DNA from: Candidatus Altiarchaeota archaeon
Lineage (GTDB): Archaea > Altiarchaeota > Altiarchaeia > IMC4 > QMZM01
Assembly: GCA_016931955.1 (NCBI GenBank)
Contig: JAFGDV010000032.1
Coordinates: 1-19,829 of the forward strand
Direction of reading: 5' to 3'
DNA length: 19,829 bases
A program made the translations under genes and the position numbers. Of the stretch, positions 1,536-19,643 are shown in pieces. The notes under the pieces were generated by a model. That model did no database searches and had not been told where the DNA came from. It saw only the letters and a list, made by a program, of their open reading frames with translations. The stretch's first letter is position 1. Each line of letters begins with the position of its first letter.

Positions 1536-1568
1536 TTTATTACTTATTCATCGTCTGCGATAAAATAA

Positions 1569-2887: not shown

Positions 2888-2959
2888 GAGAGTGCACAAA
2901 AAGAGGGTAGCCAATACTATGGGCATCAAAGAAGTTCATTACCCCTATAAAAAATCCTC

Positions 2960-3280
2960 TCAGACCTCTTCGAGAAGGGTAAGCGTGTAGTCCAATATCT
3001 TAACTAGCTGCTTTCTGGTCTCCTCTGGGTGTTTCTCGTTAAGCCTAACCTTCGCGAACTCCATGCTCAAGGCCTTACAGCCGACTACGTCATTAATCCA
3101 GGCTGCAAAGTCGTTTCTCCCATCCATGTGGAATATCAGAGAAGTGTCTGGTACTCCCTCTATCGCCGTCTTCAGAGCAGTCAGTGTCAGTATCTCAACT
3201 ATGACATCGTCGTGGTCGTTCTTCAGTTTGAAGGACGCTTCAAGATCAACTGGTCTAAGATAGGGATGCTGCTGTTCCAT
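2960..3280 (-). CDS. DUF5752-like small protein (106 aa)
   Basis: True start likely MEQQHPYL at 3280, since the longer ORF overlaps the upstream gene. Motif SLIFH...RNDFAAWINDVVG...L is characteristic of the family. Confidence 0.7.
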   Translation of the reverse strand: MEQQHPYLRPVDLEASFKLKNDHDDVIVEILTLTALKTAIEGVPDTSLIFHMDGRNDFAAWINDVVGCKALSMEFAKVRLNEKHPEETRKQLVKILDYTLTLLEEV

Positions 3281-3315
3281 GTGATAAATAATATAAAGAT
3301 TCGGGTATATATACT

Positions 3316-4293
3316 TTATCCTTGTTTGATGAACAACCAAGAATACCTTATACTGAACAAGACTAGTAGAAAGGCTGCGAGAACTAAAAACGGATTCCTG
3401 GTCACAAAGTAGATTAGTGCTGAGACGATCAAGACGGCAAGTTTGCTTCTTATGGACAAGAGCGCGAAATTCGCCCCAACATAGATCAAAGGAATAGAAG
3501 ACAGCAGCAGGGAAATCGAAACCAATAAGATGAACAGAATCCACCTGAACGCGAGAACCACGTAATGGGCTGTTAGAGGATACTCTGACAGATAGAACAC
3601 TGCCGCCAGAAAAAGAAGCAGAACTATAGTTCCAAGAGGGCGCCTTAGCAGTGAGGAAAACACGCCCTTAAAGTCCACGCTGCTCGGAGCCGACCCTAAG
3701 CCAAAGCAGACCTGCAGATACAGGAGTAGAAACACAATAGGTTTAGAGGCGACGTAGGAAAACTGCTGATAGAATGCCTTGACTATGGAATACATGGAGT
3801 CTAGGATGGGGGAAAGGTTGTTGGCTTCAACAAGCGCGGGTGTGATAAATCCCCCAGAATGGTATTCCAGGGTAAAGTTCATCAAGGCTACGAGGACGAT
3901 GCCGCAGCCGAAGAATGGGGCGAATCCGACGACGAAGCACCTTATCACTGAAAGGCTGTCTCTGGGCTGCTCATACTCAACAGAGCCAAGGTTTCCGTCA
4001 TGGGACCTGAAGCGGAATAATGACAGGGAGGTGATCTGGCAGCCGGTAAGCTTCGCAGCCACGGCATGGGAGACCTCATGCAGTATCGTTCCTGGAGCGA
4101 TTAACAGCCTGAACCAGACCGCCTTAAGTTTAGCGTAGAGGTAGACCTCGATGAAGTCGTTCAACAGTATCTGGATAGCAAATAATAAGGGAATCAAGGC
4201 GACATAGTTCCTAAGAACGAAGCCATCTAAAAAGTGCCAGGCTACAATAGATAATAAGACAAACACTGATACTATAAGAGCCCTGTATTCCAT
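3316..4293 (-). CDS. Membrane-embedded zinc metalloprotease, M50-like
   Basis: PGTILHEVSHA (HExxH), GFAPFFG, PSSVD as candidate third ligand, multiple TMs. Confidence 0.75.
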   Translation of the reverse strand: MEYRALIVSVFVLLSIVAWHFLDGFVLRNYVALIPLLFAIQILLNDFIEVYLYAKLKAVWFRLLIAPGTILHEVSHAVAAKLTGCQITSLSLFRFRSHDGNLGSVEYEQPRDSLSVIRCFVVGFAPFFGCGIVLVALMNFTLEYHSGGFITPALVEANNLSPILDSMYSIVKAFYQQFSYVASKPIVFLLLYLQVCFGLGSAPSSVDFKGVFSSLLRRPLGTIVLLLFLAAVFYLSEYPLTAHYVVLAFRWILFILLVSISLLLSSIPLIYVGANFALLSIRSKLAVLIVSALIYFVTRNPFLVLAAFLLVLFSIRYSWLFIKQG

Positions 4294-4335
4294 GGTATTT
4301 ATCTATTCTCATATAACGCAAAAAGTATTAATGAA

Positions 4336-5433
4336 ATGGCTTCACTGGAGGAAAAAATCAGAGAGATCGAAGAAGAAATACAGAAGACTCCATACAATAA
4401 GGCGACACAGCACCACATAGGCAAACTGAAGGCTAAAATAGCCAGGCTCCGGGAGAGCGCGGAGAAGAGGGGCGGCAAAGGGAAAGGGGCTGGGTTCGCA
4501 GTCAAGAAGAGCGGAGACGCTACCATAGCATTGGTTGGATTCCCTTCAGTAGGCAAGTCCACCCTCCTCAACAAGCTGACGGATGCTAGATCAAGGGTAG
4601 GAGACTACGATTTCACGACAGTAGACGTCATACCCGGCGTCATGTTCCACCAGGGGGCGAAGATCCAGGTACTGGACATACCGGGGGTTATCACCGGCGC
4701 GTCCTCTGGTAGGGGGCGGGGCAGGGAAATCCTCTCGATAATAAGGAACGTCGAACTCATCCTAATACTTGTAGATGTGCTGCACCCAGAACACCTCAAG
4801 GTCATAGAGAAGGAATTATACGACGTCGGAATAAGATTGAGTCAGAACCCGCCGAAGGTGGGCATAAAGAGGATCTTCAAGGGCGGCCTGAAGGTGGTGT
4901 CAAGCATCCCCCTCAAGAGGATTAACGTGGAAACGATCAGAGAGATACTGAACGTTAACGGCATACATTCAGCAGAGGTTACCCTTCATGAGGACCTAGA
5001 CGAGGAACGATTCATCGATGCCGTCATGAAGAACCGCGTCTATCTGCCCTGCATCATAGCACTAAACAAGATGGACACAGTAGATGAACACCTGATTATG
5101 GAACTGACGGAAAGAATTGGGAAAAAAGCCATACCCATCTCGGCTGAATCGGGGAAAAACCTCGACATCCTGCGAGAAGAGATATTCAGTAAACTGGGGA
5201 TCATGAGGTTGTACATGAAGCCCCAAGGCGGCGAACCAGACTACAAGGAACCCTTGATCATGAGAAAGAATTCCTCAGTCGGCGAAGTATGCGATTTACT
5301 CCACAAAGACATGAGAAAGAAATTCAAATATGCGATAGTCAACGGAAGATCCGCAAGATTCAAGGACCAGATTGTCGGCTTAGAGCATATATTAGATGAC
5401 GAGGATATCTTAACAATAGTCAAGAAGAGATAA
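4336..5433 (+). CDS. drg: DRG-family (Obg superfamily) ribosome-interacting GTPase with C-terminal TGS domain
   Basis: TPYNKATQHHIGKLKAK, GFPSVGKST, YDFTT, DIPG, NKMD, ISA, C-terminal VGLEHILDDEDILTI. Confidence 0.95.
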   Translation: MASLEEKIREIEEEIQKTPYNKATQHHIGKLKAKIARLRESAEKRGGKGKGAGFAVKKSGDATIALVGFPSVGKSTLLNKLTDARSRVGDYDFTTVDVIPGVMFHQGAKIQVLDIPGVITGASSGRGRGREILSIIRNVELILILVDVLHPEHLKVIEKELYDVGIRLSQNPPKVGIKRIFKGGLKVVSSIPLKRINVETIREILNVNGIHSAEVTLHEDLDEERFIDAVMKNRVYLPCIIALNKMDTVDEHLIMELTERIGKKAIPISAESGKNLDILREEIFSKLGIMRLYMKPQGGEPDYKEPLIMRKNSSVGEVCDLLHKDMRKKFKYAIVNGRSARFKDQIVGLEHILDDEDILTIVKKR

Positions 5434-8889: not shown

Positions 8890-8931
8890 ATGTTTACATT
8901 TATATACATAAAAAGCTAACATGTTAACATG
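8890..8931 (+). promoter_or_regulatory. Probable vapBC promoter (TTTATATA 8899-8906) flanked by ATGTT(T/A)ACAT candidate operator sites
   Basis: TATA box ends 22 nt before the ATG at 8929, consistent with a leaderless mRNA. ATGTTTACAT at 8890-8899 and ATGTTAACAT at 8921-8930. Confidence 0.55.
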
Positions 8932-9183
8932 AGCTACATTACCGTTAGAGTAGACAAAAAACTAAAGGAGGAAATAGAAAAATTCCAAGACATCAATTGG
9001 TCTGAGGTGGTCAGGCAGTCTATAAAGGAGAGAATAGAGCACGAAAAAACCAGGCAAAGAAAGAGAACCCTAGACGTTAAGAGAATCAAAAAGGCTGTTA
9101 AAGCCCAAGACGAGTTAAGCGATAAAACCTCCGGCAGATGGTCCGGCACAGAAGAGATAAGAAAGTGGAGGAACCTGCTTTAA
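8929..9183 (+). CDS. vapB: Antitoxin, ribbon-helix-helix VapB type
   Basis: ITVRVDKKLKEEI...INWSEVVRQSI RHH pattern; C-terminal GTEEIRKWR; directly upstream of a PIN toxin. Confidence 0.82.
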   Translation: MSYITVRVDKKLKEEIEKFQDINWSEVVRQSIKERIEHEKTRQRKRTLDVKRIKKAVKAQDELSDKTSGRWSGTEEIRKWRNLL

Positions 9184-9608
9184 TGCAAGATATGAGACTA
9201 ATCTGCATCGACGCCTCAGTAGGGGTAAAATGGTATAACCAGAAAGAACAACACTCTGAATACGCTCTGAAGATCAGAGACTCTTACGCAAGAAGGGAGA
9301 TAGAGATCATTGTTCCGGATTTATTCTTCTACGAAATCATAAACGCCCTCAGATACAATCCAGAATTCGGTCAGAGGGATGTGAAAAAAGCCGCACATGA
9401 GCTGCTAGAGATGCAGCTAATAGTCGGTAAAGACTACGGATTCCTTGAATCGGCTGCGGATATTGCCTTCTCCTACGGACTAACAATATATGATTCAAGC
9501 TATATCGCCTTAGCGCAGGAAAAAGAATGCGAACTCTACACATCAGACCAGAAAACACTATCCAAAGTAGACCTAGGATTCGTAAAACACGTCAAAGAAT
9601 TCATCTAA
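9183..9608 (+). CDS. vapC: PIN-domain toxin VapC (141 aa)
   Basis: IDASVGVKW, YEIINAL, TIYDSSYIALA, LYTSD. Start at the TAATG overlap (9183) or at 9192 rather than 9138. Confidence 0.9.
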   Translation: MQDMRLICIDASVGVKWYNQKEQHSEYALKIRDSYARREIEIIVPDLFFYEIINALRYNPEFGQRDVKKAAHELLEMQLIVGKDYGFLESAADIAFSYGLTIYDSSYIALAQEKECELYTSDQKTLSKVDLGFVKHVKEFI

Positions 9609-9631
9609 CACAAACCATACAATGCCCTAGC

Positions 9632-10057
9632 TCAGAGCTGCTCTTCCACCATCCTGAGTAAGTCTCTTAGAGGTATCCTGTATTTCTTAGCGATCCGTTG
9701 GAGGTCGCTGTATTCCGCCTTAGAGCCAAATTCGGATTTTTTTACATGGATTTTTTCCTTTCTGCCCTGAATCTCCACTTCGACTTCCTCTGTTTTGCGG
9801 TCAGCCTCGAAGCGCTCCACTTCCAGAAAACGGACTCCGAGGGTGCCGGTCTCCTCCATCAGTATTCTAGAAAATTTTTCAGGCTCATTGGTTAAGACAC
9901 GGATCAGATAGCCCAGACGACCCTTCTTCATCAGAACCTGAAGGACGTGAATGTCTAATGCACCCTCGTCCATGACATGCTCCATCAGATAAGACAATAC
10001 TTCCGGCGAACAATCATCCACGTTGGTCTCCAACAGATAGATCTTCTTAGACTTCAT
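9632..10057 (-). CDS. larC: Nickel-insertion protein LarC, C-terminal (LarC2-like) domain only
   Basis: LLETNVDD.SPE, GALD, MKKGR.G, ETGTLGVR, KAEYSD. Only 141 aa, with no His-rich N-terminal part. Confidence 0.85.
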   Translation of the reverse strand: MKSKKIYLLETNVDDCSPEVLSYLMEHVMDEGALDIHVLQVLMKKGRLGYLIRVLTNEPEKFSRILMEETGTLGVRFLEVERFEADRKTEEVEVEIQGRKEKIHVKKSEFGSKAEYSDLQRIAKKYRIPLRDLLRMVEEQL

Positions 10058-10712
10058 TTTTTGAAGATAAAATTTTATAGGCTAAGACTGCGGCTCCATA
10101 GCCGTTGTCTATGTTCACCACAGCCAAGGGAGAACAGGAATTCAACATCGTATAGAGCGCGGCCTTGCCGCCTTCACCGACGCCGTAGCCGATGGATGAT
10201 GGAACGGCTATAACTGGGGCATGGACCAAGCCAGCGACAACTGAGGGAAGAGCCCCCTCCATGCCCGCCACCACGATGAATACTGAAACATTCTTCAGAT
10301 TCTCTAAGGCAGAGAAGACACGATATATCCCTGATATTCCGACATCGTATTCTCGGACGACTACACAGCCCAGTTCCTCTGCTATAGCAGCCGCCTCCTC
10401 AGCTACTGGAATATCGGAGGTCCCGGCAGTTAACAATCCTACTCTGCCAACAGGCTCTACCGCGAAGTTTTTCTTCTTCACCACCAAGACGTTGCCTGTT
10501 TTGTTGTGGATTATATCGAATTTTTTCTCATCTATTGAAGAGATCACCTTCTCAGCCTTCTCTGGCGACACGCGAGTCAAAACAGCCCTCCCCAAGTCCG
10601 TCAGGAATTCATCCACTATGGAGGTTAATTCCTCGGCGGATTTACCTTCCCCGAAGACAACTTCCGGAACACCGCAGCGTTCCATGCGGGATCTATCATG
10701 CTTTACGTTCAT
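10047..10712 (-). CDS. larB: Nickel-pincer cofactor biosynthesis protein LarB (PurE-like)
   Basis: PEVVFGEGK, AGTSDIPVAEEA, DVGISGIYR, VAGMEGALPSVV, VPSSIGYG, MLNSC, VVNIDNGYGAA. Confidence 0.93.
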   Translation of the reverse strand: MNVKHDRSRMERCGVPEVVFGEGKSAEELTSIVDEFLTDLGRAVLTRVSPEKAEKVISSIDEKKFDIIHNKTGNVLVVKKKNFAVEPVGRVGLLTAGTSDIPVAEEAAAIAEELGCVVVREYDVGISGIYRVFSALENLKNVSVFIVVAGMEGALPSVVAGLVHAPVIAVPSSIGYGVGEGGKAALYTMLNSCSPLAVVNIDNGYGAAVLAYKILSSKNEV

Positions 10713-11382
10713 TTTCCAAAACTCCTAAAATCCAATTTAGTTCATCAAAGGTAAGCTGACCTGGAGCAGAAGCTTTTCCTTTATCAACTGAAGCGTATGT
10801 GAGGTATGAGCCGAGTAATGGGGCAAGGATGCGAGATATTCTACCAAAATGACCCATAGAGACAACTATCACAGGAATTAGAAATGAGGGATCTTCTTTC
10901 ACATCTGTGAGTACCTCCATCAACGTCAGCACTTCTCTGTAGTTTTTTGCTGTGAATGCCACCTTTGCTATATCCGCTTCAGCCGCAACCTCTTTGTTCA
11001 ATGTTTTGATTATTTCCTTCCTCGGCGGCGTGGCTTTGAAGTCGTGATATGCCACAATTACTCCCACATCCCTTTTCTTGGCCGCCTCTACAAGAGAATC
11101 CCTCAGCTTAGGATCTGTATTCAATTCCACTGTGACAAAATCCGCGAAATCAAGTGATTTAGAGAGGATGCTGACCCTCTCATCTTCAGGTCCTGTGAAC
11201 TCACCGCCCTCCCAGGAGGGCATACAGGATATAATCTTTCTCTTCCCTATTTTACTCAATGCTTCGAGGTCGGAGAAATCACTCAAATAGTCAAGCCTCA
11301 ACTCGATAATCTCTGACGGTGCTAGGTTGGCTTTTTCGACCATGGAATCTACTGAGGATTCAATCAAAGAGACACAGATCAT
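10696..11382 (-). CDS. aroD: Type I 3-dehydroquinate dehydratase
   Basis: MICVSL, IELRLDYL, EGG, YHDF..TP (catalytic His), DIAKVA (Schiff-base Lys), SMG...SR, SAPGQ. Start at 11382 (alternative 11397); the longer ORF overlaps minD. Confidence 0.93.
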   Translation of the reverse strand: MICVSLIESSVDSMVEKANLAPSEIIELRLDYLSDFSDLEALSKIGKRKIISCMPSWEGGEFTGPEDERVSILSKSLDFADFVTVELNTDPKLRDSLVEAAKKRDVGVIVAYHDFKATPPRKEIIKTLNKEVAAEADIAKVAFTAKNYREVLTLMEVLTDVKEDPSFLIPVIVVSMGHFGRISRILAPLLGSYLTYASVDKGKASAPGQLTFDELNWILGVLENERKA

Positions 11383-11431: not shown

Positions 11432-12187
11432 ATGACAAGAATAATTGGCATACTATCCGGGAAAGGCGGCGTGGGAAAGACTACACTGGTTTCTAATCTT
11501 GGTGTTACACTGGCGCAAGCTGGAAGGAAGGTGGGGATAATAGATGCGAACCTCTCTGGAGCCAACCTCGGGCTACACTTTGGACTGATATCCTACCCAA
11601 CATCAGTGCATGATGTCATGAGAGGGAACACGGCGTTAACAGATGCTATGTACAAGCATCCTTCCGGGGTTGACATAGTGCCCGCTTCTTTGTCCATTGA
11701 AGACCTCGACGTAGAGCCGACGAACATAAGACAACAGATCCTGGAACACATGAGCGACAAAGACTATGTGCTCATAGACTGCGCTACTGGATTGGACAGG
11801 GAAACAATGAAGGCCATGGAAATGGTAGACGACGTAATCCTCGTAACGCACCCAGAGCTTCCTACAATATCCGACGCACTGAGGACGAAGACTATAGCGA
11901 AAAAATACGACAAAAACATTCTCGGAATAGTCCTGAACCGGGTGAACAGAAGCGACGAACTTAAGAAGGAGAACATTTCAGCCTTCTTCGATCTGCCAGT
12001 GATAGGGGTGATCCCAGAAGACCACTTTATAAGGAAGTCAATAGAAGCGAAGAATCCGATAACCTTGGAATACCCTAAACACAAGATAAGCCATGAAATC
12101 AAGAGCATATCGCATTACCTGATGGGTAAGGAATACAGACACCAGCAGAGCCTCGTCGACAAGATCAAGTCATTCTTCAGGAAATAG
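11432..12187 (+). CDS. minD: MinD-family ATPase
   Basis: SGKGGVGKTT deviant Walker A, IDAN...NLG, LIDC..G, C-terminal amphipathic LVDKIKSFFRK. Confidence 0.9.
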   Translation: MTRIIGILSGKGGVGKTTLVSNLGVTLAQAGRKVGIIDANLSGANLGLHFGLISYPTSVHDVMRGNTALTDAMYKHPSGVDIVPASLSIEDLDVEPTNIRQQILEHMSDKDYVLIDCATGLDRETMKAMEMVDDVILVTHPELPTISDALRTKTIAKKYDKNILGIVLNRVNRSDELKKENISAFFDLPVIGVIPEDHFIRKSIEAKNPITLEYPKHKISHEIKSISHYLMGKEYRHQQSLVDKIKSFFRK

Positions 12188-12189
12188 GT

Positions 12190-12579
12190 ATGCGTTTACT
12201 GAATAAGGCAAAAAAAGAAGTTATCGGCGAAAACGCTGAGACTGCTTGTTCTTTCTTATCTCGGACTAGAGGATTGATGCTCTCCAAGCCCAGAGACTTG
12301 GTTCTAGTATCCCCAAGAGAGGATATTGCATCATCGACCATACACATGCTCTTCATGCTCTATCCGATAGATGTAATCTGGTTGGACTCCGAGAAAAAGG
12401 TGGTTGACTTACAGAGGAATGTGAAACCCTTCAATCCATTGAAGCCGAAAACCTGGAGAACCTATAAGCCAAAGAAGCCGGCAAAATACGTAATCGAATT
12501 GGGAGCAGGCGTGATGGGAGAAACAGAGGTCGGTGATGAAATAAGTCTATATACCGACTCCCCCGAAGCGCTTCATTAA
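12190..12579 (+). CDS. DUF192 (UPF0127) family protein
   Basis: RTRGLM, IHMLFMLYPIDVIWLD, AKYVIEL.AG. Confidence 0.88.
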   Translation: MRLLNKAKKEVIGENAETACSFLSRTRGLMLSKPRDLVLVSPREDIASSTIHMLFMLYPIDVIWLDSEKKVVDLQRNVKPFNPLKPKTWRTYKPKKPAKYVIELGAGVMGETEVGDEISLYTDSPEALH

Positions 12580-13863
12580 CTTCTTCAGCTTTCTTTCGTC
12601 TCCAAAGGACTTCATCATCTTCTTCATCTTCTTGTAGTGATTCAGAAGCTCTCGGACCTCCTCCGTTTTCTTACCTGAACCATGAGCTATCCTCTCCACC
12701 CTCGACCTCTTAATTAATTCAGGATTCTGCATCTCCTCCTCGGTCATGGAATCCATTATAATCCTGAAGGTCTGCAGCTTCTCCTCCTGCAAATCCATCA
12801 TGTCCCTGGGAATCTTGGAGCCGAACGGGAGCATCTCCATCAGCTTCGATAGAGAACCCATCTTCTTCATCTGCTCAATCTGCTGGTATAGGTCTTCCAG
12901 TGTGAACTTTCCGGAAACAAGCCTCTCCGCTGATTCCTCGTCGAATTCAACCTCCTTAGCCTTCTCCAACAAACCCTGAAGGTCTCCGAAACCGATAAGC
13001 CGGGAAACAAAGCGTTCCGGATCGAACTCCTCAAAATCGTCCGCGTGCTCCCCCACACCCATAAAGTAGACCGGTGCACCGGTCGTGGCACAGGCGGATA
13101 ACGCACCTCCGCCCTTGGCGGAACCATCCAATTTAGTGAGGATGACTCCGTCGACGTTGCATGCCTTCTTGAAAGCGGCTGCTTGCTCCCCAGCGCGTTG
13201 ACCAATCGTCGAATCCAGGACAAGGAGGGTTTTCTCCGGCTTTACTTCAGTATAGATCCGGTTTATGTCCCTCATCAGCTCATCATCCAAGCTGTGTCTC
13301 CCCTCAGAGTCTATTATCGTAAGACCCTTCCCCCTGAACTTCTCGAAGCCTTCTCCTATAATCTTCAAAGCGTCCTTCTCGCCAGGGCTACCATAGAAGG
13401 GTATGTGTATTTCATCGGAAAGCTGCTTCAGCTGCTCGTAGGCTGCGGGTCGGAAGGTGTCGGCGCATATTAGTCTTGAGTTGAAACCCTTCTTCTTCAA
13501 GTAGTTCGCAAGCTTAGCAGCAGTCGTGGTCTTACCAGAACCCTGGGTTCCCACCAAGAGGATCCGCTCGCCTTCCTGAATAGGCAGCTTCTCTCCCCTG
13601 CCCAGAAGTCCCACCAACTCCTCATACGTTATCTTTATGAGGTTTTCGCTCTTATCCAGAACCCCTGGAGGCTTCTCCAAGAAACCCCTCTCCTCGATAT
13701 TCTTCGACAACTTGAAAACCAGCTCCACGTTAACGTCGGCTGATAGAAGGGTCTTCTGTATCTCCTTAATGTATTCCCTGACGGTTTTTTTGTCGACTAC
13801 GACCGCCTTTCTAAGGGTTGTTATCGCAGCCTGTAAGCCATCTTTAAGCTTATCGAAGACCAT
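12547..13863 (-). CDS. srp54: Signal recognition particle protein SRP54
   Basis: Start MVFDKLK at 13863. LLSADVN, G.QGSGKTTT, DTFRPAA, TKLDGSAKGGGALS, M domain IMDSMT.EE and SRVERIAHGSG with Met-rich tail. Confidence 0.96.
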   Translation of the reverse strand: MVFDKLKDGLQAAITTLRKAVVVDKKTVREYIKEIQKTLLSADVNVELVFKLSKNIEERGFLEKPPGVLDKSENLIKITYEELVGLLGRGEKLPIQEGERILLVGTQGSGKTTTAAKLANYLKKKGFNSRLICADTFRPAAYEQLKQLSDEIHIPFYGSPGEKDALKIIGEGFEKFRGKGLTIIDSEGRHSLDDELMRDINRIYTEVKPEKTLLVLDSTIGQRAGEQAAAFKKACNVDGVILTKLDGSAKGGGALSACATTGAPVYFMGVGEHADDFEEFDPERFVSRLIGFGDLQGLLEKAKEVEFDEESAERLVSGKFTLEDLYQQIEQMKKMGSLSKLMEMLPFGSKIPRDMMDLQEEKLQTFRIIMDSMTEEEMQNPELIKRSRVERIAHGSGKKTEEVRELLNHYKKMKKMMKSFGDERKLKKLMKRFGGVGI

Positions 13864-13921
13864 TTTCTGAGAGAAGGGTACACAGATATATTGTAGACAT
13901 ACTAATAAATAATTCAGGAAA

Positions 13922-15184
13922 ATGAATCCCATACACATAACACTCGTTTACCTGCTATGGATCATCATAACGTTCTTTTTCATGGTGATCTTCCTCACAC
14001 TGTTAAAGAACAGGAAAAGCATATACGAGGAGCCCAAGCCCTCAAATGAACAGCCTACTGTGAGCGTGGTCGTCCCAGCATACAATGAAGAGGGAACGAT
14101 CAGGGAGGCGATCGAATCCCTGACAGCAGTAGACTACCCAAAGGACCTGTATGAGATCATCGTCGTGAACGACGGCTCAACCGACAGGACGGCTGAAATA
14201 GTAAGCGAATACGAAAAAAAACACAACATAGTCTTCATAAACAACAAAGAAAATAGTGGAAAGGCAAGGGCGCTGAACATGGGCATAGGAAAAGCCAAAG
14301 GCGAACTGGTTGCTTGCCTGGATGCTGACACAACAATAAAGCCCGACACGATAAGGAAGGCAATAAAGCACTTTAACGGCGACCGAATCGGGGCAGTGAT
14401 CATTCGAGTGAGCGTCAAGGAGCCGAAAAACTGGCTTGAGAAGATAATAGCCGTAGAATACAACATGGGTTTAGGCTTCTATCTGAAGATATACTCGTTC
14501 CTAAACTGCCTCTATCTGACGCCTGGACAATGCAGCGTGTACAGGAGAAACATGCTGCTAGAGATCGGGGGATTCGACGAGAAAAGCATCGTAGAAGACA
14601 TGGAAATAGCCTACAGGATACAGAAAGCCCACTACAAGATCAAATGCTGCCTGTCCGCGGAAGCCCACACAAAGGTCCCAGACAATGTAAGATCCCTCTA
14701 CCATCAGAGGAAGAGGTGGTATTCTGGCTCCATAATGACGATCATACAACACAGGGACGTGTTCTTCGACCGCGACCTGGGTAATTTCGGGTTATTTTAT
14801 GTGCCAGTAAACTACGCCGGCATAATCATAGGCTTGCTGTTGTTCCTGTCAACGATCCATCTAATGGCCTCACTGATACTGCAAAACATCACCTGCCTAT
14901 CCTTGGTAGACTACGACATCTATGGCGTAGTTCAAGGATCCATCGAGAACCTTCGTATCGATCCACTATCGATAAACATCTTCTATATCTTATGCTCGAC
15001 TCCATTCATAATGAACTCCCTCATGAACTACGCGGGTTTTAAGGTTCTCGGGAAAAGGGTAAGGGAAAACCTGTTCGGGTTCGTTTGCTTCCTGTTCTTC
15101 TTCCTACCCTACCACATATTCTGGCTTATGTGCTTCTACTTCGTCATCTTCAAGAAGGAGGTAAAATGGAGAGAGTCGATGTGA
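13922..15184 (+). CDS. Processive-type membrane GT2 glycosyltransferase (PgaC/IcaA/NodC/HAS-like), paralog A
   Basis: N-terminal TM; VPAYNEE, NDGSTD, GKARALN, DADT, LTPG, VED, QRKRW; C-terminal TMs ending EVKW. Confidence 0.92.
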   Translation: MNPIHITLVYLLWIIITFFFMVIFLTLLKNRKSIYEEPKPSNEQPTVSVVVPAYNEEGTIREAIESLTAVDYPKDLYEIIVVNDGSTDRTAEIVSEYEKKHNIVFINNKENSGKARALNMGIGKAKGELVACLDADTTIKPDTIRKAIKHFNGDRIGAVIIRVSVKEPKNWLEKIIAVEYNMGLGFYLKIYSFLNCLYLTPGQCSVYRRNMLLEIGGFDEKSIVEDMEIAYRIQKAHYKIKCCLSAEAHTKVPDNVRSLYHQRKRWYSGSIMTIIQHRDVFFDRDLGNFGLFYVPVNYAGIIIGLLLFLSTIHLMASLILQNITCLSLVDYDIYGVVQGSIENLRIDPLSINIFYILCSTPFIMNSLMNYAGFKVLGKRVRENLFGFVCFLFFFLPYHIFWLMCFYFVIFKKEVKWRESM

Positions 15185-15852
15185 AAACAATGCTGCTGGC
15201 AGCGCTATTCACCGTAATCCTGTTCCTGGGAGTCTACGGCCTAAGCACATTCATAGGGGAGAGAAGAGAACAAGTAGTGACTGAGAAGATGAACGAGATC
15301 ATCGAAGACTTTGAGGAAATAGAGACAACGGTTCGCCTGATAGAATTACTGAGCGAAAAAAACAACACATGCAATATCCTGACGCAGGAGCTGGAATACC
15401 TGGAATCAAAGCTATGGAAATTAGACGGCAGGATAACAGAATACAGGGAGATAACAAAGGACTTCGCAAGCGACGAATTCTATATAAGAGAAAAAAAGAG
15501 GTTGAATAGGAGGGAGATAATATACATGGCGATGCTCGAAAAAGTGAAGAAGATGTGCGACTACGAGCAGATGCTGATACTCTACTTCTACGGGGAATGC
15601 GAGAAAAACAGGGAATGCGATGAACAAGGCTTCGTCTTAAGTTACATAAACCAGAGGGCGGACCCGGAGATAGCAATACTGAGCTTTGATGCAGACCGCA
15701 ATGTCCAGTCGGTTAACTCCCTCATCAGTCTATACAACATAACCGAGTACCCCTGCGTTGTCGTGGACGAGCACACACACTGCGGCCTACACGACAAAGG
15801 GGATATGGAGGAAATACTATGCATGTACAGTAATCTGTCAATATGCACATAA
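15166..15852 (+). CDS. Membrane-anchored Cys-rich protein: TM, helical region and thioredoxin-like C-terminal domain (accessory paralog 1, 228 aa)
   Basis: SD AAGGAGGT precedes ATG 15166. N-terminal TM; LYFYGECEKNREC, YNITEYPCVVVD; 8 Cys; sequons NNT, NIT, NLS. Confidence 0.8.
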   Translation: MERVDVKTMLLAALFTVILFLGVYGLSTFIGERREQVVTEKMNEIIEDFEEIETTVRLIELLSEKNNTCNILTQELEYLESKLWKLDGRITEYREITKDFASDEFYIREKKRLNRREIIYMAMLEKVKKMCDYEQMLILYFYGECEKNRECDEQGFVLSYINQRADPEIAILSFDADRNVQSVNSLISLYNITEYPCVVVDEHTHCGLHDKGDMEEILCMYSNLSICT

Positions 15853-15853
15853 A

Positions 15854-17125
15854 ATGATAGAAACAATCCTGTTCGTGTTTTTCATGGTAATGTCGGTATT
15901 GTATGCATCTTGGATAGTGCTGCTCCTCCTCCCTAGAAAAGAGACTGAGACCACATATACACCAAGCATGTCCGTGATCATCCCAGCGCACAACGAAGGA
16001 GGAAACATAGAAAGCACAATACGCTCCGTTCTGGAAGCAGAATACCCGAATGAGAGGGAAATCATTGTAGTAAATGACGGCTCAACCGACAACACAGATA
16101 ATATTGTGAGAAAAACCTCTGAGATAGATGAGAGGGTAAGGCTCTATACAGTAGAGCACGGCGGAAAAGCGAACGCAATAAATCAGGGAGTGAAGAAGTC
16201 GAAGAACGAATTGGTGGTTGTCTTAGACGCTGACTCACGGCTGGGAGAGGGTGCTCTGACAGAGATAAGCAGGCTGTTTTCTGACAAAGGCGTTGGCGCC
16301 GTCTCTGGAATAATAAGGGCCGCCGAAAACAACAATCCATTGACGTGGTTCCAGGACTTCGAATACGCGCTGTCTTCCGCTTGGAGATACATATGCAACA
16401 AGGTCGGAGGAACATACATACTCCCGGGCTTTGCGGCATTCAGGAGAGACGCCCTATTGAAGATCGGGGGCTTCAGTAGAGACACGTTATCAGAGGACTT
16501 CGAAATCGGTTTAAGGCTGAAGAAGGCAGGTTACAGTCTGTTGATGTCGAAGGCTGTGATGTACACGAAAGTCCCGCAGACCATAAAGGCGCTAGGAAGG
16601 CAGAGGATTAGATGGGGGTGTGGGACAGTACAGGTCATGAAGAAGCACTTCGACATACCGTTCAATGTAAAATACGGCGCAGTCGGCGTATATGGAATAC
16701 CTACGCAGATCTACTGGTTCATCCACGGACTGATATGCATCCCAATAACCCTGTACCAGATATTCGAAGGCTACCTAAGGTATTTCATAGCATACGACAA
16801 CTTCATATCCATGGATGTAGCAAGATACTTCTTCGGATGGTTCTCCGCGTATGGGATGGTAGAATACACCTATAGAACAATAACTGGGGAATACATAATG
16901 AGCATACTGTTCTTCCTGATCGTAGGATCCTTCTGCTTAAACATGATCTACATCATAGCCGCCATTATGAAGATGGCAGAATTCAGGCTAAGATACCTGT
17001 TCGTGGTATTCTTCTTCTTCCCATACTCACTGTTCATCCTTTCACTGTACGTCTTCCCCGCACTACAGGAGCTCTGCTCCAAGAGAGAAAACGTAAACAT
17101 ATGGGAGAAGACCATAGACGGTTAG
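15854..17125 (+). CDS. Processive-type membrane GT2 glycosyltransferase, paralog B (423 aa)
   Basis: Start MIETILF at 15854, 1 nt after the upstream stop. IPAHNE, NDGSTD, GKANAIN, DADS, QDFEY, ILPG, SED, QRIRW; C-terminal TMs and NIW. Confidence 0.92.
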   Translation: MIETILFVFFMVMSVLYASWIVLLLLPRKETETTYTPSMSVIIPAHNEGGNIESTIRSVLEAEYPNEREIIVVNDGSTDNTDNIVRKTSEIDERVRLYTVEHGGKANAINQGVKKSKNELVVVLDADSRLGEGALTEISRLFSDKGVGAVSGIIRAAENNNPLTWFQDFEYALSSAWRYICNKVGGTYILPGFAAFRRDALLKIGGFSRDTLSEDFEIGLRLKKAGYSLLMSKAVMYTKVPQTIKALGRQRIRWGCGTVQVMKKHFDIPFNVKYGAVGVYGIPTQIYWFIHGLICIPITLYQIFEGYLRYFIAYDNFISMDVARYFFGWFSAYGMVEYTYRTITGEYIMSILFFLIVGSFCLNMIYIIAAIMKMAEFRLRYLFVVFFFFPYSLFILSLYVFPALQELCSKRENVNIWEKTIDG

Positions 17126-17772
17126 CATCGAACATATTCCCCCAAGTCTGTCTTGCTCTGCAGGCCCTCCAGTTTCACTCTCTCATCGATGAGTATCGTT
17201 GGGGTAACGGTTATGTTATACTGTTTCTTGATTATGTCGATTGTCGCAATATCCAGGTCAATAGGAAGTGGAATAAGCATCATACCGCGCCCGCACTTTT
17301 CCTTCAAATCCATGAGAACCGCACTATGCACGTTTTCCTCCATCGACGTATTATAGTGAGAATAAAAGTACACAACGTTGGAGTAGCTGGCATTACAGTT
17401 CCTCTTCAATTCGATGCAGTTAAACCAAAACTGCAGCTTCAACAGAACATAGCGCCTCTTGTCAATGATAAGGGAGGGCGCGAGCTTGTTTACCTTCTCA
17501 TATTCGTCGATGCGCAAGCCTTCAGCGTACACCTTCTCCGAGAACCTCAGATTTTCTTGAATGGCCGGCTCACAGAAGTTAGAAGAATTCCTGAATATCT
17601 GATAGTAGAGGCTCTGCATCCTCGCATCGTTGGAGCTTATCTCCATCCCCTTATATTCCTCCCTGACCTCTTCCACACGAGAGTTATCAATCCACATACC
17701 GATAAAAACACCAATCACGAATATGATCAACGTCAAGACAAAAGCCTTCCAGAAAACATCCTGAGCTACCAT
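17122..17772 (-). CDS. Membrane-anchored protein: TM, helical region and thioredoxin-like C-terminal domain (accessory paralog 2, 216 aa)
   Basis: Colinear similarity with 15166-15852 (SNFC/NNTC, RIDEY/RITEY, KRNC/KKMC, VYFY/LYFY, YNITVTP/YNITEYP). 5 Cys; sequons NSS, NAS, NTS, NIT. Confidence 0.8.
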   Translation of the reverse strand: MVAQDVFWKAFVLTLIIFVIGVFIGMWIDNSRVEEVREEYKGMEISSNDARMQSLYYQIFRNSSNFCEPAIQENLRFSEKVYAEGLRIDEYEKVNKLAPSLIIDKRRYVLLKLQFWFNCIELKRNCNASYSNVVYFYSHYNTSMEENVHSAVLMDLKEKCGRGMMLIPLPIDLDIATIDIIKKQYNITVTPTILIDERVKLEGLQSKTDLGEYVRC

Positions 17773-18983
17773 TTTTGTTTCCTATATACCAAAAGCCTCC
17801 AAAACGAATGGATTAATAATATAGGGAATAAGAAGAGATAGATTGATAAATAGATGAGCATCTCAAAGAAGTTGCTTAGACTGCGTATAGGCTTATCCAT
17901 CGCCTTCAAGCCCACGAAAAGATAAATCAAAGAAGTGAAGAATATGGTCAACCCAAAGACTGTGAACACGTTAGGCAACAGATTCAAAGAAAAATAGTTC
18001 ATTGGATTCACGCCAGCGATCTTGGCATAATACCAGAACTCCATAAAAGAGGAAAACCTCAGTATGAGAAGGTAGAGAAACAAGGCCAAGCCGACTAGGC
18101 TTAAGATTATTGAAACAGAAAAATACGGCACAATAAACAAACCAAAGACACCATATCGCTTACTTAAGAAGGCGTTCTTGTATGCGCTGGCTGTCTGTAT
18201 GCCGCCGATATCCCACCTCAGCCGCTGACGCCACCAGCTCCTGAAAGAGGACGGCGCCGTGGTGTAAACCTTCGCCGGAAGAGCCATCCGAATCCTATAA
18301 TGTGCTTTCTGCAGCCTCCAGGCAATCTCGATGTCCTCGGTCAGAACATTCTCATCAAAGCCACCTAATTTCTCCAAGACGCTCTTCCGGTATAAACTCA
18401 AAGGTCCAGGAGTAACGTAGACACTATTCAAGTAGTCTAAAAGCTTCCTATTCCATGCGATAAGCAGATACTCCATCTCCTGCAGCTTCTGCAGGAAGTT
18501 CCTCGCATCCCTAACAAGGATCGAAGAAGTCACCGCAGCCACCTTAGTATCACTAAAAAAGGTAATCATCTTCAGCAGAGCATCCTCGGCAGGATAAGAG
18601 TCAGCGTCAACGCAGCCAACGACCTCGCCCATCGCCTCAGAAATACCGCGATTAAGTGCGGCCGCCTTCCCCGCGTTATCCTGCCTGATAACCCTAACAC
18701 CCAACTCCTCAGCCCTCTCCGCCGTCTTATCAGTTGAGCCATCATCAACTACTATAACCTCAACACCCACAGGATAAGAGAGATTCTTAACCGCCTTAAT
18801 CGTTTCCCCTATATGTATCTCCTCATTGTATGCTGGAACAATCAAACTCAAGGAAGGAAACACCTCAGGCGAAGCCCCAGCAGACATCCTACCCCAGTTC
18901 TCCACGAAGAGGATCATAAAAAACACTATCAAGTAAAGAGAAATGAATGCAAAACCAAGGAACAAATAATCTATGAGGTACAT
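17766..18983 (-). CDS. Processive-type membrane GT2 glycosyltransferase, paralog C
   Basis: N-terminal TM; VPAYNEE, DDGSTD, GKAAALN, DADS, QEMEY, VTPGP, TED, QRLRW; ends KQKW. Confidence 0.92.
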   Translation of the reverse strand: MYLIDYLFLGFAFISLYLIVFFMILFVENWGRMSAGASPEVFPSLSLIVPAYNEEIHIGETIKAVKNLSYPVGVEVIVVDDGSTDKTAERAEELGVRVIRQDNAGKAAALNRGISEAMGEVVGCVDADSYPAEDALLKMITFFSDTKVAAVTSSILVRDARNFLQKLQEMEYLLIAWNRKLLDYLNSVYVTPGPLSLYRKSVLEKLGGFDENVLTEDIEIAWRLQKAHYRIRMALPAKVYTTAPSSFRSWWRQRLRWDIGGIQTASAYKNAFLSKRYGVFGLFIVPYFSVSIILSLVGLALFLYLLILRFSSFMEFWYYAKIAGVNPMNYFSLNLLPNVFTVFGLTIFFTSLIYLFVGLKAMDKPIRSLSNFFEMLIYLSIYLFLFPILLIHSFWRLLVYRKQKW

Positions 18984-19040
18984 TCTTTAGGATATATCCA
19001 CGAAATACATACTATTACTAAATACCAAGGCTGGATTAAA

Positions 19041-19643
19041 ATGCTCAAAGACCGGATCTTCGTCTTGGAGACAAAAAGACAGGCAGTGCATCTGTTTTTA
19101 GGACTCACCATCAGCGTAGCAGTATATCACCTAATGCCAATCGTAGGATACTACATCCTAGTCCCCCTCATGGTGGCGTTAATAGTGCTACTGCAGATGC
19201 AAAAACGATGCCCCAATCTACGGATAGCCAACCACCTAGTATGCCACTTCGAAAGAGACAACGACGCAATAAACTGCCCATTCAAGGGCTCAATCTTCTA
19301 CGGCTTCGGCATAATACCCCCAATCCTATTCCTGCCGCTAAACTACGCATGCGCAGTAATCGCAGTACTCAGCGTAGGAGACTCCACCTCCACCTGGATT
19401 GGAAAATTCTTCGGCAGAATAAGGATAGGACACAAAAGCCTTGAAGGAACCCTAACATTCTTCATATTCAGCAGCCTCGCCGTGTTATTATACGTACAAG
19501 ACTACCAAATAGCGCTAATCTTCGGCCTAGTCGGAGCAATACTAGAACTATTCACGCTCATAGACGACAACCTATTCATCCCCTTAGGATTAACAATACT
19601 ATACCACCTACTGAATATAATTACGCCAAATCTAATAGTTTAA
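19041..19643 (+). CDS. SEC59/DGK1/VTE5-family CTP-dependent polyprenol/dolichol/diacylglycerol kinase (200 aa)
   Basis: Start MLKDRIF at 19041. RQAVH, LSVGDSTSTWIGKFFG, KSLEGT, DDNLFIP; multiple TMs. Confidence 0.85.
   Translation: MLKDRIFVLETKRQAVHLFLGLTISVAVYHLMPIVGYYILVPLMVALIVLLQMQKRCPNLRIANHLVCHFERDNDAINCPFKGSIFYGFGIIPPILFLPLNYACAVIAVLSVGDSTSTWIGKFFGRIRIGHKSLEGTLTFFIFSSLAVLLYVQDYQIALIFGLVGAILELFTLIDDNLFIPLGLTILYHLLNIITPNLIV

Follow-up and report, generated by a model that had tools for sequence, protein, structure and literature searches.

A glycosyltransferase and its membrane-anchored partner form a widespread gene pair of DPANN archaea: a candidate two-subunit surface glycan synthase

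What does a cell make with three divergent membrane glycosyltransferases whose genes are packed against those of two membrane-anchored proteins of no familiar family? This question is raised by a window of 19,829 nucleotides from a Candidatus Altiarchaeota archaeon, in which the ORF lists reveal the tightly packed gene order GT-A > acc1 > GT-B >< acc2 < GT-C (Table 1). This five-gene order, first proposed in a reading of the sequence alone, was borne out, with an overlap or a 1-nt gap at every junction: GT-A and acc1 overlap by 19 nt, acc1 and GT-B are separated by 1 nt, GT-B and acc2 converge with an overlap of 4 nt, and GT-C and acc2 overlap by 7 nt. Since the same arrangement recurs in many other genomes, it is not due to chance. 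Two of the ORFs extend upstream of the starts that were adopted: in case of acc1 (ORF 15085-15852, +) the Met at 15166 was taken because homologues of 228-248 aa span 94-100% of the 228 residues and tblastn matches start at residue 1 (one further homologue is a 151-aa fragment with 64% coverage), whilst in case of GT-B (ORF 15758-17125, +) the ATG at 15854 was taken because homologue alignments start at residue 1. Within the genome, the three glycosyltransferases are the only full-length paralogues, at 670-693 bits against 143 bits for the next GT2, and acc1 and acc2 are the only acc genes. The reported absence of a PilZ domain, deacetylase and flippase was likewise confirmed for the window; CE4 genes occur elsewhere in the genome, not adjoining the module.

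Table 1. Features of the module and of its flanks.
Feature	Coordinates	Strand	Description
SRP54 (Ffh)	12547..13869	-	Pfam SRP54, SRP_SPB and SRP54_N matches; context gene
GT-A	13922..15184	+	420-aa membrane GT2; N-terminal helix, cytoplasmic GT-A-fold domain, C-terminal helices
acc1	15166..15852	+	228-aa partner; N-terminal membrane helix, helical stalk, Cys-rich thioredoxin-like C-terminal domain
GT-B	15854..17125	+	423-aa membrane GT2, third paralogue, placed after acc1
acc2	17122..17772	-	216-aa partner; membrane helix ~8-28, three-helix stalk, thioredoxin-fold domain without CxxC
GT-C	17766..18983	-	405-aa membrane GT2, catalytic gene directly upstream of acc2
TMx	19038..19643	+	201-aa polytopic membrane protein, no assigned family; conserved neighbour bounding the module in Altiarchaeota

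The glycosyltransferases and their relatives

All three enzymes match Pfam Glycos_transf_2 (E 6e-39 to 8e-31; GT-A matches PF00535 at E 5.9e-39), with GT-B and GT-C sharing 30% and 38% identity with GT-A. The full D, DxD, ED and QxxRW set ascribed to them in the sequence-only reading is present in the three-way alignment, where D84..D88, D134-A-D136, E225-D226 and Q262-R263-x-R265-W266 (GT-A numbering) are invariant, and the same motifs are invariant amongst GT-C orthologues. The membrane architecture ascribed to them also stands: each enzyme has one N-terminal and two to four C-terminal hydrophobic helices and a Trp 0-8 residues from its C-terminus, which as last or near-last residue is invariant in 25 of 25 GT-C orthologues; aromatic residues are also kept in the C-terminal helices of GT-C (Y304, F340, Y378 and Y382). 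The AlphaFold2 model of GT-C has a pLDDT of 91.5 and a pTM of 0.88. Each enzyme defines a well supported clade in the GT tree (SH-aLRT 99, 100 and 99 for the GT-A, GT-B and GT-C clades with 5, 8 and 39 rows).

Amongst named families, the best NCBIfam match for all three is the poly-beta-1,6-GlcNAc synthase model PgaC_IcaA (TIGR03937; 182, 153 and 183 bits for GT-A, GT-B and GT-C), in keeping with the earlier assignment to the small membrane GT2 synthases. GT-C residues 29-404 align to model positions 30-397 of 407, membrane part included, and the GT-B match likewise runs nearly end to end through the membrane part, whilst that of GT-A is limited to residues 10-311. The enzymes share with PgaC/IcaA a size of about 410 aa and the motif set, although all NCBIfam scores lie far below every equivalog cut-off (PgaC_IcaA, 150-183 against 422.3 bits; CelA, 61-88 against 699 bits; NodC, 77-108 against 550 bits), and they are hence not equivalogs of PgaC/IcaA. 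Furthermore, unlike in Pga/Ica systems, neither a deacetylase nor a porin gene adjoins the module and no c-di-GMP element is recognisable. A GT-C profile aligns with BcsA over the GT domain and the beginning of the membrane region (profile 24-358, E 1e-26 to 4e-28) and with hyaluronan synthase (8smm; profile 91-367, E 4e-23); the enzymes, however, lack a PilZ domain and are half as large as BcsA. NodC, with its N-terminus outside, a single N-terminal helix and three C-terminal ones, and the class I hyaluronan synthases carry the same motifs and are likewise small GT2 enzymes of the membrane, yet to our knowledge have no dedicated subunit on the extracytoplasmic side.

Enzymes other than polymer synthases share the QxxRW architecture: ceramide glucosyltransferase (E 1e-10 to the GT-C profile), PcManGT and the lipid-glycosylating CruG and HpnI (30-61 bits) also match, as does HpnB (NCBIfam). 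PcManGT of Pyrobaculum calidifontis, described as a mannosyltransferase of N-glycans that is non-processive and has a minimal cellulose-synthase-like fold, is an archaeal membrane GT2 for which we know of no acc-type partner. It is amongst the best PDB matches of GT-C (6yv7-6yv9; E 2e-31 to 6yv7), with an alignment that covers the GT domain (profile 23-248) and ends before QxxRW and the membrane part; PcManGT binds GDP-Man. The C-terminal membrane part, taken by itself, gave no sequence match in the PDB. As such lipid-glycosylating or short-product GT2/GT21 enzymes share architecture and motifs with those studied here, GT could be a non-processive enzyme that attaches one sugar, or a few, to a lipid. 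This lipid would be either a membrane lipid of archaeol type, so that a glycolipid results, or a precursor linked to dolichol phosphate that serves S-layer or protein glycosylation, and acc would be the extracytoplasmic partner that handles the flipped lipid-linked product or hands it to outer enzymes. We regard this reading as possible, at well below even odds: amongst named families PgaC/IcaA is far ahead (150-183 bits against 30-61 for CruG/HpnI), the profile alignments to BcsA and hyaluronan synthase extend into the membrane part, and a lipid glycosyltransferase facing the cytoplasm has no obvious need of a large outward-facing subunit.

The acc family and its fold

The acc1 and acc2 proteins are paralogous, with E 5e-11 and 22% identity in an alignment of 210 columns, and neither Pfam nor NCBIfam holds a model that matches the family above threshold, in agreement with their earlier description as an unfamiliar paralogue pair; the only hint was a sub-cut-off match of acc2 to Pfam Thioredoxin_3 (E 0.0015). 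A literature search found no published description of the acc partner. The family profile retrieves 1326 representatives; acc1 has 31 homologues, all named ones being from Altiarchaeota or Altiarchaeales, whilst acc2 has more than 154 and belongs to a DPANN-wide branch of the family.

In the AlphaFold2 model of acc2 (pLDDT 82, pTM 0.71) a C-terminal domain of about 90 aa takes up a thioredoxin fold with the cis-Pro kept, and a Foldseek search superposed the model on free-standing thioredoxins with target-normalised TM-scores of 0.62-0.74 (E ~1e-4, rmsd 2-3 Å). The catalytic subunits PgaC and IcaA work with a small dedicated membrane partner, PgaD or IcaD, both of which are small two-helix proteins; acc is unrelated to these, with a large thioredoxin-fold domain that is predicted to face outwards. 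BcsB is extracytoplasmic, held by a single-helix anchor, and sits over the synthase BcsA, where it guides the polymer; acc has its anchor at the N-terminus, followed by helical stalk and thioredoxin fold, lacks the BcsB domains and gave no match to BcsB in Pfam or the PDB. Thioredoxin-like subunits of a membrane glycosylation enzyme are found in the eukaryotic oligosaccharyltransferase (Ost3/Ost6; TUSC3/MagT1), and the acc2 domain resembles them in fold and cis-Pro and would resemble them in this type of role. The differences are a single N-terminal anchor with a three-helix stalk, a GT2 rather than an oligosaccharyltransferase as partner, and the lack of any sequence match at threshold.

A further difference lies in the cysteines. 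The acc2 branch lacks CxxC and any Cys where the active site would lie, and just two cysteines are invariant, C67 in the stalk and C126 at the start of strand 1; acc1 has eight invariant or nearly invariant cysteines, including a C-x5-C at the thioredoxin active-site position and a further Cys beside the cis-Pro. The predicted GT interface leaves out the most conserved residues of the acc2 ectodomain, amongst them the strand end that usually comes before CxxC, a LIPLP motif with D172, and the cis-Pro P191, which suggests that the ectodomain has a binding site of its own. Together with the thioredoxin fold and the acc1 cysteines, this site would suit a mainly redox or chaperone-like factor for secreted or surface proteins, with GT supplying a donor or primer for protein glycosylation. 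Such a role is improbable in view of the missing active-site Cys throughout the DPANN-wide branch, of a partner that in most loci is a QxxRW GT2 and not the oligosaccharyltransferase (see below) and of the lack of similarity to any named redox family at threshold.

Coupling of the pair and a model of its complex

The sequence-only reading took the acc proteins to be dedicated GT partners and set a gene-neighbourhood survey as the test beforehand; the result was positive. In 38 of 40 acc2-type loci a GT-C orthologue abuts upstream on the same strand, the two exceptions being a contig end (L011) and a GT 3 kb away (L028), and in a wider genome sample GT > acc abut in 117 of 139 places (gap -3 to 260 nt, median 34). 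The acc1 gene lies between GT-A and GT-B in 5/5 loci, GT-A > acc1 > GT-B synteny is seen in L001-L005, L013, L057 and L058, and GT > acc also occurs in the Altiarchaeota loci L053-L056. In some genomes "long" acc-like paralogues are found away from GT2 genes.

Could GT and acc be mere co-inherited syntenic neighbours, linked neither physically nor in function? The 22 of 139 places without direct abutment would allow for this, yet order, strand and near-zero spacing of this operon-like pair are kept across at least three archaeal phyla and one CPR lineage whilst all other neighbours vary, and the GT and acc trees mirror each other with the same sub-clades, as befits co-inheritance. Structure prediction also found the GT-acc interface that had been anticipated: GT-C with acc2 reached ipSAE values of 0.77, 0.78 and 0.76, whereas the three controls, including other partners of similar size, all gave 0.00. 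At least 96% of contacts are common to the runs, with a partner pLDDT of at least 79, and the score mark is reached by 58 of 80 solved complexes as against 2 of 110 mismatched pairs, a calibration that is only rough here owing to custom alignments. In the model, the acc2 membrane helix packs antiparallel on the first helix of GT-C (residues 12 to 24 of GT-C meet residues 18 to 9 of acc2), which would place the stalk and thioredoxin-fold domain outside the cell, where the ectodomain contacts the GT-C loop 312-346 and N-terminus. Such an extracytoplasmic domain fits with the invariant cysteine pairs, made up of two Cys in acc2 and of eight in acc1. Conservation is higher in the membrane-helix interface than in the remaining residues (entropy 1.04 against 1.72 in acc2, 1.48 against 1.97 in GT-C), and this interface coincides with the invariant face of the acc helix, whilst the predicted ectodomain contacts are poorly conserved (1.94 against 1.32 in the acc2 thioredoxin domain). 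As complex predictors can pair membrane helices, these poorly conserved contacts could speak for an interface that is an artefact of two helices lying side by side; given the controls, the mirrored trees and the invariant helix face, we consider this very improbable. Thus, adjacency, mirrored trees and the complex model strongly support the link between GT and its partner.

Only GT and acc are common to all loci (44/45 and 45/45), and the other neighbours are lineage-specific, which counts against the lipid-glycosylating alternative. In Aenigmatarchaeota an S-layer protein and an Alg9/PMT_2-like enzyme lie near it (15-17 loci), in Woesearchaeota polytopic PMT_2-like proteins and a small GT2, and a VTT/DedA protein is also amongst these neighbours; acc-like paralogues adjoin a 499-aa polytopic protein with a faint AglB_core-like match (E 0.034). 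The S-layer and AglB-like or PMT_2-like neighbours count in favour of both the lipid-glycosylating and the redox or chaperone alternative, and the small GT2 and VTT/DedA neighbours in favour of the former: the S-layer, Alg9/PMT_2-like (GT-C-fold), small GT2 and VTT/DedA neighbours fit a protein- or lipid-glycosylation pathway equally well.

Distribution and proposed function

In two DPANN phyla, 172/201 and 98/121 genomes contain the acc family, as do 41/61 Altiarchaeota genomes and 5/251 CPR bacteria; none of the 151 Thermoproteota genomes searched gave a match. The GT-C type is present in 194/201 genomes at E<=1e-50, and GT-C is thus the orthologue of a nearly universal single-copy DPANN gene; with acc2 it forms a widespread, nearly universal and uncharacterised pair of DPANN archaea. 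Such near-universality amongst genomes as small as 0.5-2 Mb is in keeping with a core step in the envelope, as a lipid glycosyltransferase would provide, and is equally compatible with a protein- or lipid-glycosylation pathway. Against the expectation that all three GT clades often occur together, most genomes have a single GT > acc pair; GT-A, acc1 and GT-B were found in Altiarchaeota loci only, so that the co-occurrence of the three clades is not general. The set GT-A > acc1 > GT-B is an expansion specific to Altiarchaeota and occupies the same slot of the chromosome, flanked by SRP54 and TMx. The sequence-only reading also took the three enzymes to be possibly hetero-oligomeric, like the three non-identical CESA subunits of plants. 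TMx adjoins the module in L001-L005, L008-L010, L013, L053, L055 and L057-L060, and no match to it amongst Pfam, NCBIfam and PDB sequences was significant (best E 0.0075, one member); SRP54, which lies outside the system, is the other conserved boundary of the slot in Altiarchaeota.

The reading that we prefer, with a probability of about 0.5, is that GT and acc are the two subunits of a surface glycan synthase, that the extracytoplasmic one is of a new kind, and that their role lies in the core envelope rather than in an accessory biofilm. The catalytic subunit would be a small PgaC/IcaA-like GT2 with an N-terminal helix predicted to run from outside to inside, a cytoplasmic GT-A-fold domain carrying D, DxD, TED and QxxRW, and three to four C-terminal helices; it would take a nucleotide sugar from the cytoplasm and build a beta-linked, most likely HexNAc-containing chain at the membrane, polymerising it processively and translocating it. 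The acc subunit would be anchored by one helix, antiparallel to the first GT helix via a conserved small-residue face (F7, T14, F18, G21 and G25), with its stalk and cysteine-less thioredoxin-fold domain placed above the outer loop of GT, where it may receive, guide or hold the emerging glycan, much as BcsB serves BcsA or IcaD/PgaD serve IcaA/PgaC, albeit with an unrelated fold. Because the pair is present in 81-86% of the 0.4-2 Mb genomes of two DPANN phyla, a core function in the cell envelope of these archaea fits better than an optional exopolysaccharide or biofilm system.

The GT2 enzymes and their genes

The sequence-only reading had described a compact module of five genes, taken there for a candidate exopolysaccharide synthase complex of three GT2 enzymes with two dedicated partners, and as an observation this module proved correct in every checkable particular: ORFs, junctions, motifs and paralogy all agree (coordinates in the table below). 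GT-A and acc1 overlap by 19 nt, acc1 and GT-B are separated by 1 nt, the convergent genes GT-B and acc2 overlap by 4 nt and GT-C and acc2 by 7 nt; acc1 and GT-B each form part of a longer frame opening with TTG, and their starts were set at the internal Met residues with which the homologues begin. An open frame antisense to acc2 was rejected as a shadow ORF that is no gene. A whole-genome search of the window's own genome (1.55 Mb, 92% complete) returned no further full-length GT or acc copy.

Coordinates of the features discussed (L, homologous locus in another genome; G and C, genome and contig, G000 being the window's own genome)
Feature	Location	Coordinates	Strand	Length	Remark
Five-gene module	window	13922-18983			tightly packed; ORF lists
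GT-A	window	13922-15184	+	420 aa	ORF list
acc1	window	15166-15852	+	228 aa	ORF list, internal start chosen
GT-B	window	15854-17125	+	423 aa	ORF list, internal start chosen
acc2	window	17122-17772	-	216 aa	ORF list
GT-C	window	17766-18983	-	405 aa	ORF list
C-terminal Trp of GT-C	window	17769-17771
Open frame antisense to acc2	window	17101-17841	+	246 aa	shadow ORF
TMx	window	19038-19643	+	201 aa	polytopic membrane protein
DUF6290 protein gene overlapping PIN-domain protein gene	window	8929-9183 and 9138-9608	+
LarC-type fragment gene	window	9632-10057	-	141 aa	C-terminal third of the family only
AIR-carboxylase-like (LarB-type) gene	window	10047-10712	-
MinD/ParA-type gene	window	11432-12187			weak BcsQ match
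Cluster of several shorter GT2 genes	G000, C23	about 44.8-66.5 kb
CE4 polysaccharide deacetylase	G000, C23	46006-46395			adjoins the next GT2
GT2	G000, C23	46586-47332
Extra divergent acc-like gene	L005	8269-8913	+		after GT-B
GT-C>acc2 region with S-layer-like protein and Alg9/PMT_2-like enzyme	L019	775-7045			convergent with acc2
Region of the long acc paralogue	L048 (G114:C1)	594-4887
CPR GT>acc	L141 (G388:C1)	8923-10975
CPR GT>acc	L142 (G389:C36)	592-2632

The remaining genes of the window are housekeeping genes by their Pfam/NCBIfam-type domain matches: SRP54, a MinD/ParA-type ATPase, DUF192, shikimate-pathway genes, LarB and LarC-like genes, a DRG-type GTPase and a PIN/DUF6290 pair. The MinD/ParA-type gene was read as a generic P-loop ATPase outside the system, and the overlapping DUF6290 and PIN genes are probably a toxin-antitoxin pair; the LarC-type protein, which matches the nickel-insertion family and adjoins the LarB-type gene, may be split or truncated. 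TMx, at the module edge opposite SRP54, is a conserved neighbour of the GT/acc genes in 15 loci of Altiarchaeota, and its alignment contains invariant acidic, His and Gly residues. Profile searches against Pfam, NCBIfam and the PDB sequences gave it no significant match, the best being E 0.0075 for one member; a supposed likeness to CTP-dependent polyprenol kinases was dropped. No deacetylase, PilZ domain, flippase or export gene was found within the window. Of the two CE4 deacetylase genes in the genome, neither is on the window's contig; one belongs to the separate GT2 cluster on contig C23, a glycan cluster of classical type with no relation to the module described here.

All three enzymes match the Pfam GT2 family PF00535 far beyond its gathering cut-off (134, 108 and 119 bits for GT-A, GT-B and GT-C vs 23.3 bits), and the D, DxD, (T)ED and QxxRW motifs are invariant in the three paralogues and in 25/25 GT-C orthologues, with flanking membrane helices present. 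The top NCBIfam model for each is PgaC_IcaA (TIGR03937) with 182.3, 152.9 and 183.0 bits, scores that stay below its equivalog cut-off of 422.3 bits; the match is nearly full length in GT-C and GT-B and covers residues 10-311 only in GT-A. The NodC, CelA, XrtG-associated, MftF and lipid-modifying GT2 models all score lower than PgaC_IcaA: NodC (TIGR04242) gave 108, 80 and 77 bits vs a 550-bit cut-off, and the BcsA models TIGR03030 and NF008558 gave 61-88 and 52-63 bits vs cut-offs of 699 and 992, with no Pfam match in the GTs to the PilZ domain that BcsA requires. Recent tandem duplication of the three GTs was ruled out, since GT-B and GT-C are only 30% and 38% identical to GT-A and the three fall into well-supported clades.

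Against the PDB, the GT-C profile matched K4CP chondroitin synthase (E 1e-32, GT domains only), PcManGT (E 2e-31, GT domain), BcsA (E 4e-28 to 1e-26, extending to profile position 358), hyaluronan synthase (E 4e-23, profile positions 91-367) and ceramide glucosyltransferase (E 1e-10); PcManGT is non-processive. The profile of the C-terminal membrane part alone matched no PDB sequence at E<=1. In the AlphaFold2 model of GT-C (pLDDT 91.5), a helix at residues 3-32 is followed by the GT domain (45-245), an interface helix carrying QRLRW and the C-terminal helices 279-322, 339-361, 369-382 and 385-399. A C-terminal Trp is invariant in 25/25 GT-C orthologues, usually as the final residue and preceded by basic residues. 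By motif set, database matches and modelled helices, GT-A, GT-B and GT-C thus belong among the small membrane "synthase-type" GT2s, and we infer processivity and translocation by these enzymes.

The acc family

With 22% identity (E 5e-11), the partners acc1 and acc2 are paralogues, though distant ones. Neither had a match above Pfam or NCBIfam thresholds, the only one in Pfam being a sub-threshold Thioredoxin_3 hit, and no PDB relative of either was found by sequence; PgaD and IcaD models were presumably present in the libraries searched. A profile of both branches found 1326 representatives at E<=1e-3 (1016 at <=1e-10) among 1.84 billion cluster representatives, the best 150 of the 1326 being mostly 205-245 aa long (range 123-297 aa). 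The source name was "hypothetical protein" in every case seen, including the ESM Atlas clusters for acc2, and the cluster members of 10 acc representatives yielded no informative name; all acc1 homologues bearing a source name are from Candidatus Altiarchaeales or Altiarchaeota.

The AlphaFold2 model of acc2 (20 homologues; pLDDT 82, pTM 0.71) exhibits a long N-terminal helix that comprises membrane span and stalk, then two helices and a beta-alpha-beta-alpha-beta-beta-alpha domain. Foldseek matched this last domain to thioredoxins with probability 1.00 and an rmsd of 2-3 A over ~90 residues, the target-normalised TM-score against free-standing thioredoxins being 0.62-0.74: as modelled, the domain is a thioredoxin fold with a cis-Pro loop. 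The alignment suggests the same fold for acc1, the model having been made for acc2 only. The cis-Pro residue P191 is invariant in the acc2 family, where C67 and C126 are the only invariant Cys residues and the CxxC of thioredoxin/DsbA-type oxidoreductases is missing, with Cys at the start of helix 1 in 0/20 sequences; in the acc1 family, 15/16 sequences carry C-x5-C at the site of the thioredoxin active centre, and eight Cys are conserved overall. A role of acc as a redox or chaperone factor is hence accommodated by the acc1 pattern but not by the acc2 branch, which is cysteine-less at the active site, and we consider such a role improbable for the family.

A search for longer acc2 homologues, in itself weak evidence, found no fused GT-acc proteins. 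Open frames of ~700 aa were ruled out as GT fusions: these "long" acc paralogues consist of an acc-like N-terminal 215 aa and a ~480-aa extension without family, and occur at locus L048 and at 14 places in the 201-genome sample treated below, some of them away from GT2 genes. At L048 the long paralogue comes after a 248-aa acc-like gene and a gene whose 499-aa polytopic product faintly resembles AglB_core (E 0.034).

Pairing of GT and acc and the predicted complex

A neighbourhood survey of acc homologues, which the sequence-only reading had proposed as a check, came out positive: a GT-C orthologue (36-68% identity) lies directly upstream on the same strand in 38/40 public acc2 loci, with GT stop and acc start overlapping or within ~30 nt. 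As for the two exceptions, L011 ends at a contig edge and L028 has its GT 3 kb away on the other strand. The order GT-A > acc1 > GT-B was found in 5/5 loci with acc1, all syntenic and from Altiarchaeota MAGs. In a 201-genome sample of the phylum to which a Woesearchaeota MAG belongs, 172 genomes matched the acc profile and 194 the GT-C profile (E<=1e-50); 139 acc places had coordinates among the matches listed for both, and at 117 of these the GT lies immediately upstream, at a median distance of 34 nt (range -3 to 260 nt). The other 22 comprise nine with a gap of 630-670 nt, one of 335 nt, two of ~1.3 kb, three in which acc precedes the GT by 4.6-4.8 kb, and seven at a distant site or on a different contig. 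The 14 long forms include this whole last group and seven of the nine with a 630-670-nt gap. The only families common to all loci are the GT (44/45) and acc (45/45), every other neighbour being lineage-specific, and the GT and acc trees show matching clades and sub-clades (quick LG+G4 searches with SH-aLRT support only).

Complex prediction was run with a 25-row GT-C alignment, a 20-row acc2 alignment and three controls. GT-C and acc2 gave ipSAE values of 0.77, 0.78 and 0.76 vs 0.00 for the best of the controls, with at least 96% of contacts common between runs and a partner pLDDT of at least 79. In calibration the mark was reached by 58/80 solved complexes and 2/110 mismatched pairs, counts that apply only roughly here because the alignments were self-supplied. 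We know of no like complex, so a pass from the predictor's memory seems unlikely. In the model, acc2 residues 3-29 run antiparallel along GT-C helix 1 (residues 1-28) with contact to residues 342-346, and the acc2 ectodomain (90-97, 144-155, 204-208) contacts the GT-C loop 312-346 and N-terminus. Because the GT domain, which comes after helix 1, has to be on the side of the nucleotide-sugar pool, the acc domain would lie on the outer side and is predicted to be extracytoplasmic, with which the invariant Cys pairs agree. On both membrane helices, interface positions are more conserved than non-interface positions, and the invariant acc2 residues F7, T14, F18, G21 and G25 all fall within the interface. 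The ectodomain contact residues are poorly conserved. Conservation in the ectodomain is highest away from the modelled interface, where Y108, F115, N118, Y130, Y135 and D172 make up a conserved patch, so that these residues may constitute a separate binding site.

The pair thus shows what is expected of the proposed two-subunit GT-acc complex: adjacent genes, shared inheritance and an interface in the prediction. We consider it highly probable that the two proteins function as one complex; a link by synteny alone appears very unlikely.

Distribution, function and significance

By profile, acc occurs in 41/61 Altiarchaeota genomes (10/13 of high quality, 0/8 in one family; acc2-only profile), in 172/201 genomes of the phylum of the Woesearchaeota MAG and in 98/121 of the phylum of an Aenigmatarchaeota MAG. 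The phylum of a Bathyarchaeia MAG (Thermoproteota) gave 0/151; related GT2s are present there (best 256 bits, variable length), with most alignments stopping before the C-terminal helices. A CPR phylum gave 5/251, and at two CPR loci GT>acc lies beside pheS/pheT and gyrB. Mis-binned archaeal contigs were ruled out as the source, because the same contigs carry RF-1/PCRF, VanY, bacterial-type PheST and GyrB; the two genomes encode Mur ligases but no ribosomal protein S4e. GT>acc in CPR probably reflects inter-domain transfer.

The GT-C and acc2 clades span the DPANN phyla, while those of GT-A, GT-B and acc1 occur only in Altiarchaeota loci, so that the expectation of the sequence-only reading that acc genes would often be accompanied by all three GT clades was not borne out. 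In Altiarchaeota the slot between SRP54 and TMx varies in content: a single GT>acc (L053, L055), GT-A>acc1>GT-B (L001-L005, L057, L058), GT-C>acc2 alone (L008-L010) or all five genes (the window and L013, with L012 rearranged). The window accordingly shows this variable module at its most complete, which is not its general form. At L005 an additional divergent acc-like gene follows GT-B, and each GT there therefore has an acc gene downstream. Next to GT-C>acc2 in 15-17 Aenigmatarchaeota-type loci are genes for an S-layer-like protein (S_layer_C) and for a ~190-aa protein without family, and at L019 the gene for an Alg9/PMT_2-like enzyme of GT-C fold is convergent with acc2.

Our main reading, to which we assign a probability of about one half, is that GT and acc form a two-subunit surface glycan synthase, in which the GT subunit would polymerise and export the glycan and acc would be a new type of extracytoplasmic subunit. 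This differs from a PgaC/IcaA system, which has PgaD or IcaD as partner and an adjacent PgaB/IcaB deacetylase, whereas the window has acc, without NCBIfam match, in place of the former and CE4 genes only elsewhere in the genome. The main rival, which we regard as possible rather than probable, is a non-processive lipid-directed GT2 that feeds S-layer or protein glycosylation or glycolipid synthesis. It draws on the near universality of the pair in very small genomes, on lineage-specific neighbours (S-layer protein, Alg9/PMT_2-like enzymes, small GT2, VTT/DedA) and on the AglB-like polytopic protein that adjoins long acc-like paralogues.

Römling 2022 (PMC10086821), in its available portions, describes PNAG/cellulose-synthase-like GT2 genes in DPANN, including Woesearchaeota with PgaC/BcsA-like GT2, and models one GT2 from a Woesearchaeota archaeon; these portions do not mention a partner of the GT2. 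The corresponding portions of Bird 2016 (PMC4975002) refer to generic glycosyltransferases only, and those of Krause 2022 (PMC8975820) hold nothing on the GT-acc pair. We found no description of the acc family or of the pair in a literature search that left aside subscription papers and supplementary gene tables, which could mention them. The catalytic subunit is familiar, and the partner acc is undescribed and the DPANN-wide distribution without earlier report as far as we found.

The genomes of DPANN archaea are tiny, and for most of these organisms a life attached to other cells is assumed; to our knowledge, very few of their lineage-wide surface components have been described. Roughly four fifths of the genomes in two DPANN phyla have the pair, as do two thirds of those in Altiarchaeota. 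Tentatively, and as a possibility of clearly lower standing than the two-subunit synthase itself, the pair may be a signature DPANN surface-glycan machine: ancient there, nearly universal, single-copy and passed sideways to a few CPR, it would make an undescribed polymer or glycoconjugate for the envelope or for host attachment, acc being a new subunit class in which a cysteine-less thioredoxin fold binds the nascent glycan, with an expansion in Altiarchaeota to three synthases and two partners and possibly a mixed or layered product. The question is testable, since only two genes have to be co-expressed and assayed. Should the product of the pair be a surface glycan, this would establish a conserved envelope polymer for DPANN organisms, extend synthase-dependent glycan secretion by a new kind of accessory subunit, and provide a concrete target for labelling, cultivation work and studies of symbiont-host contact.
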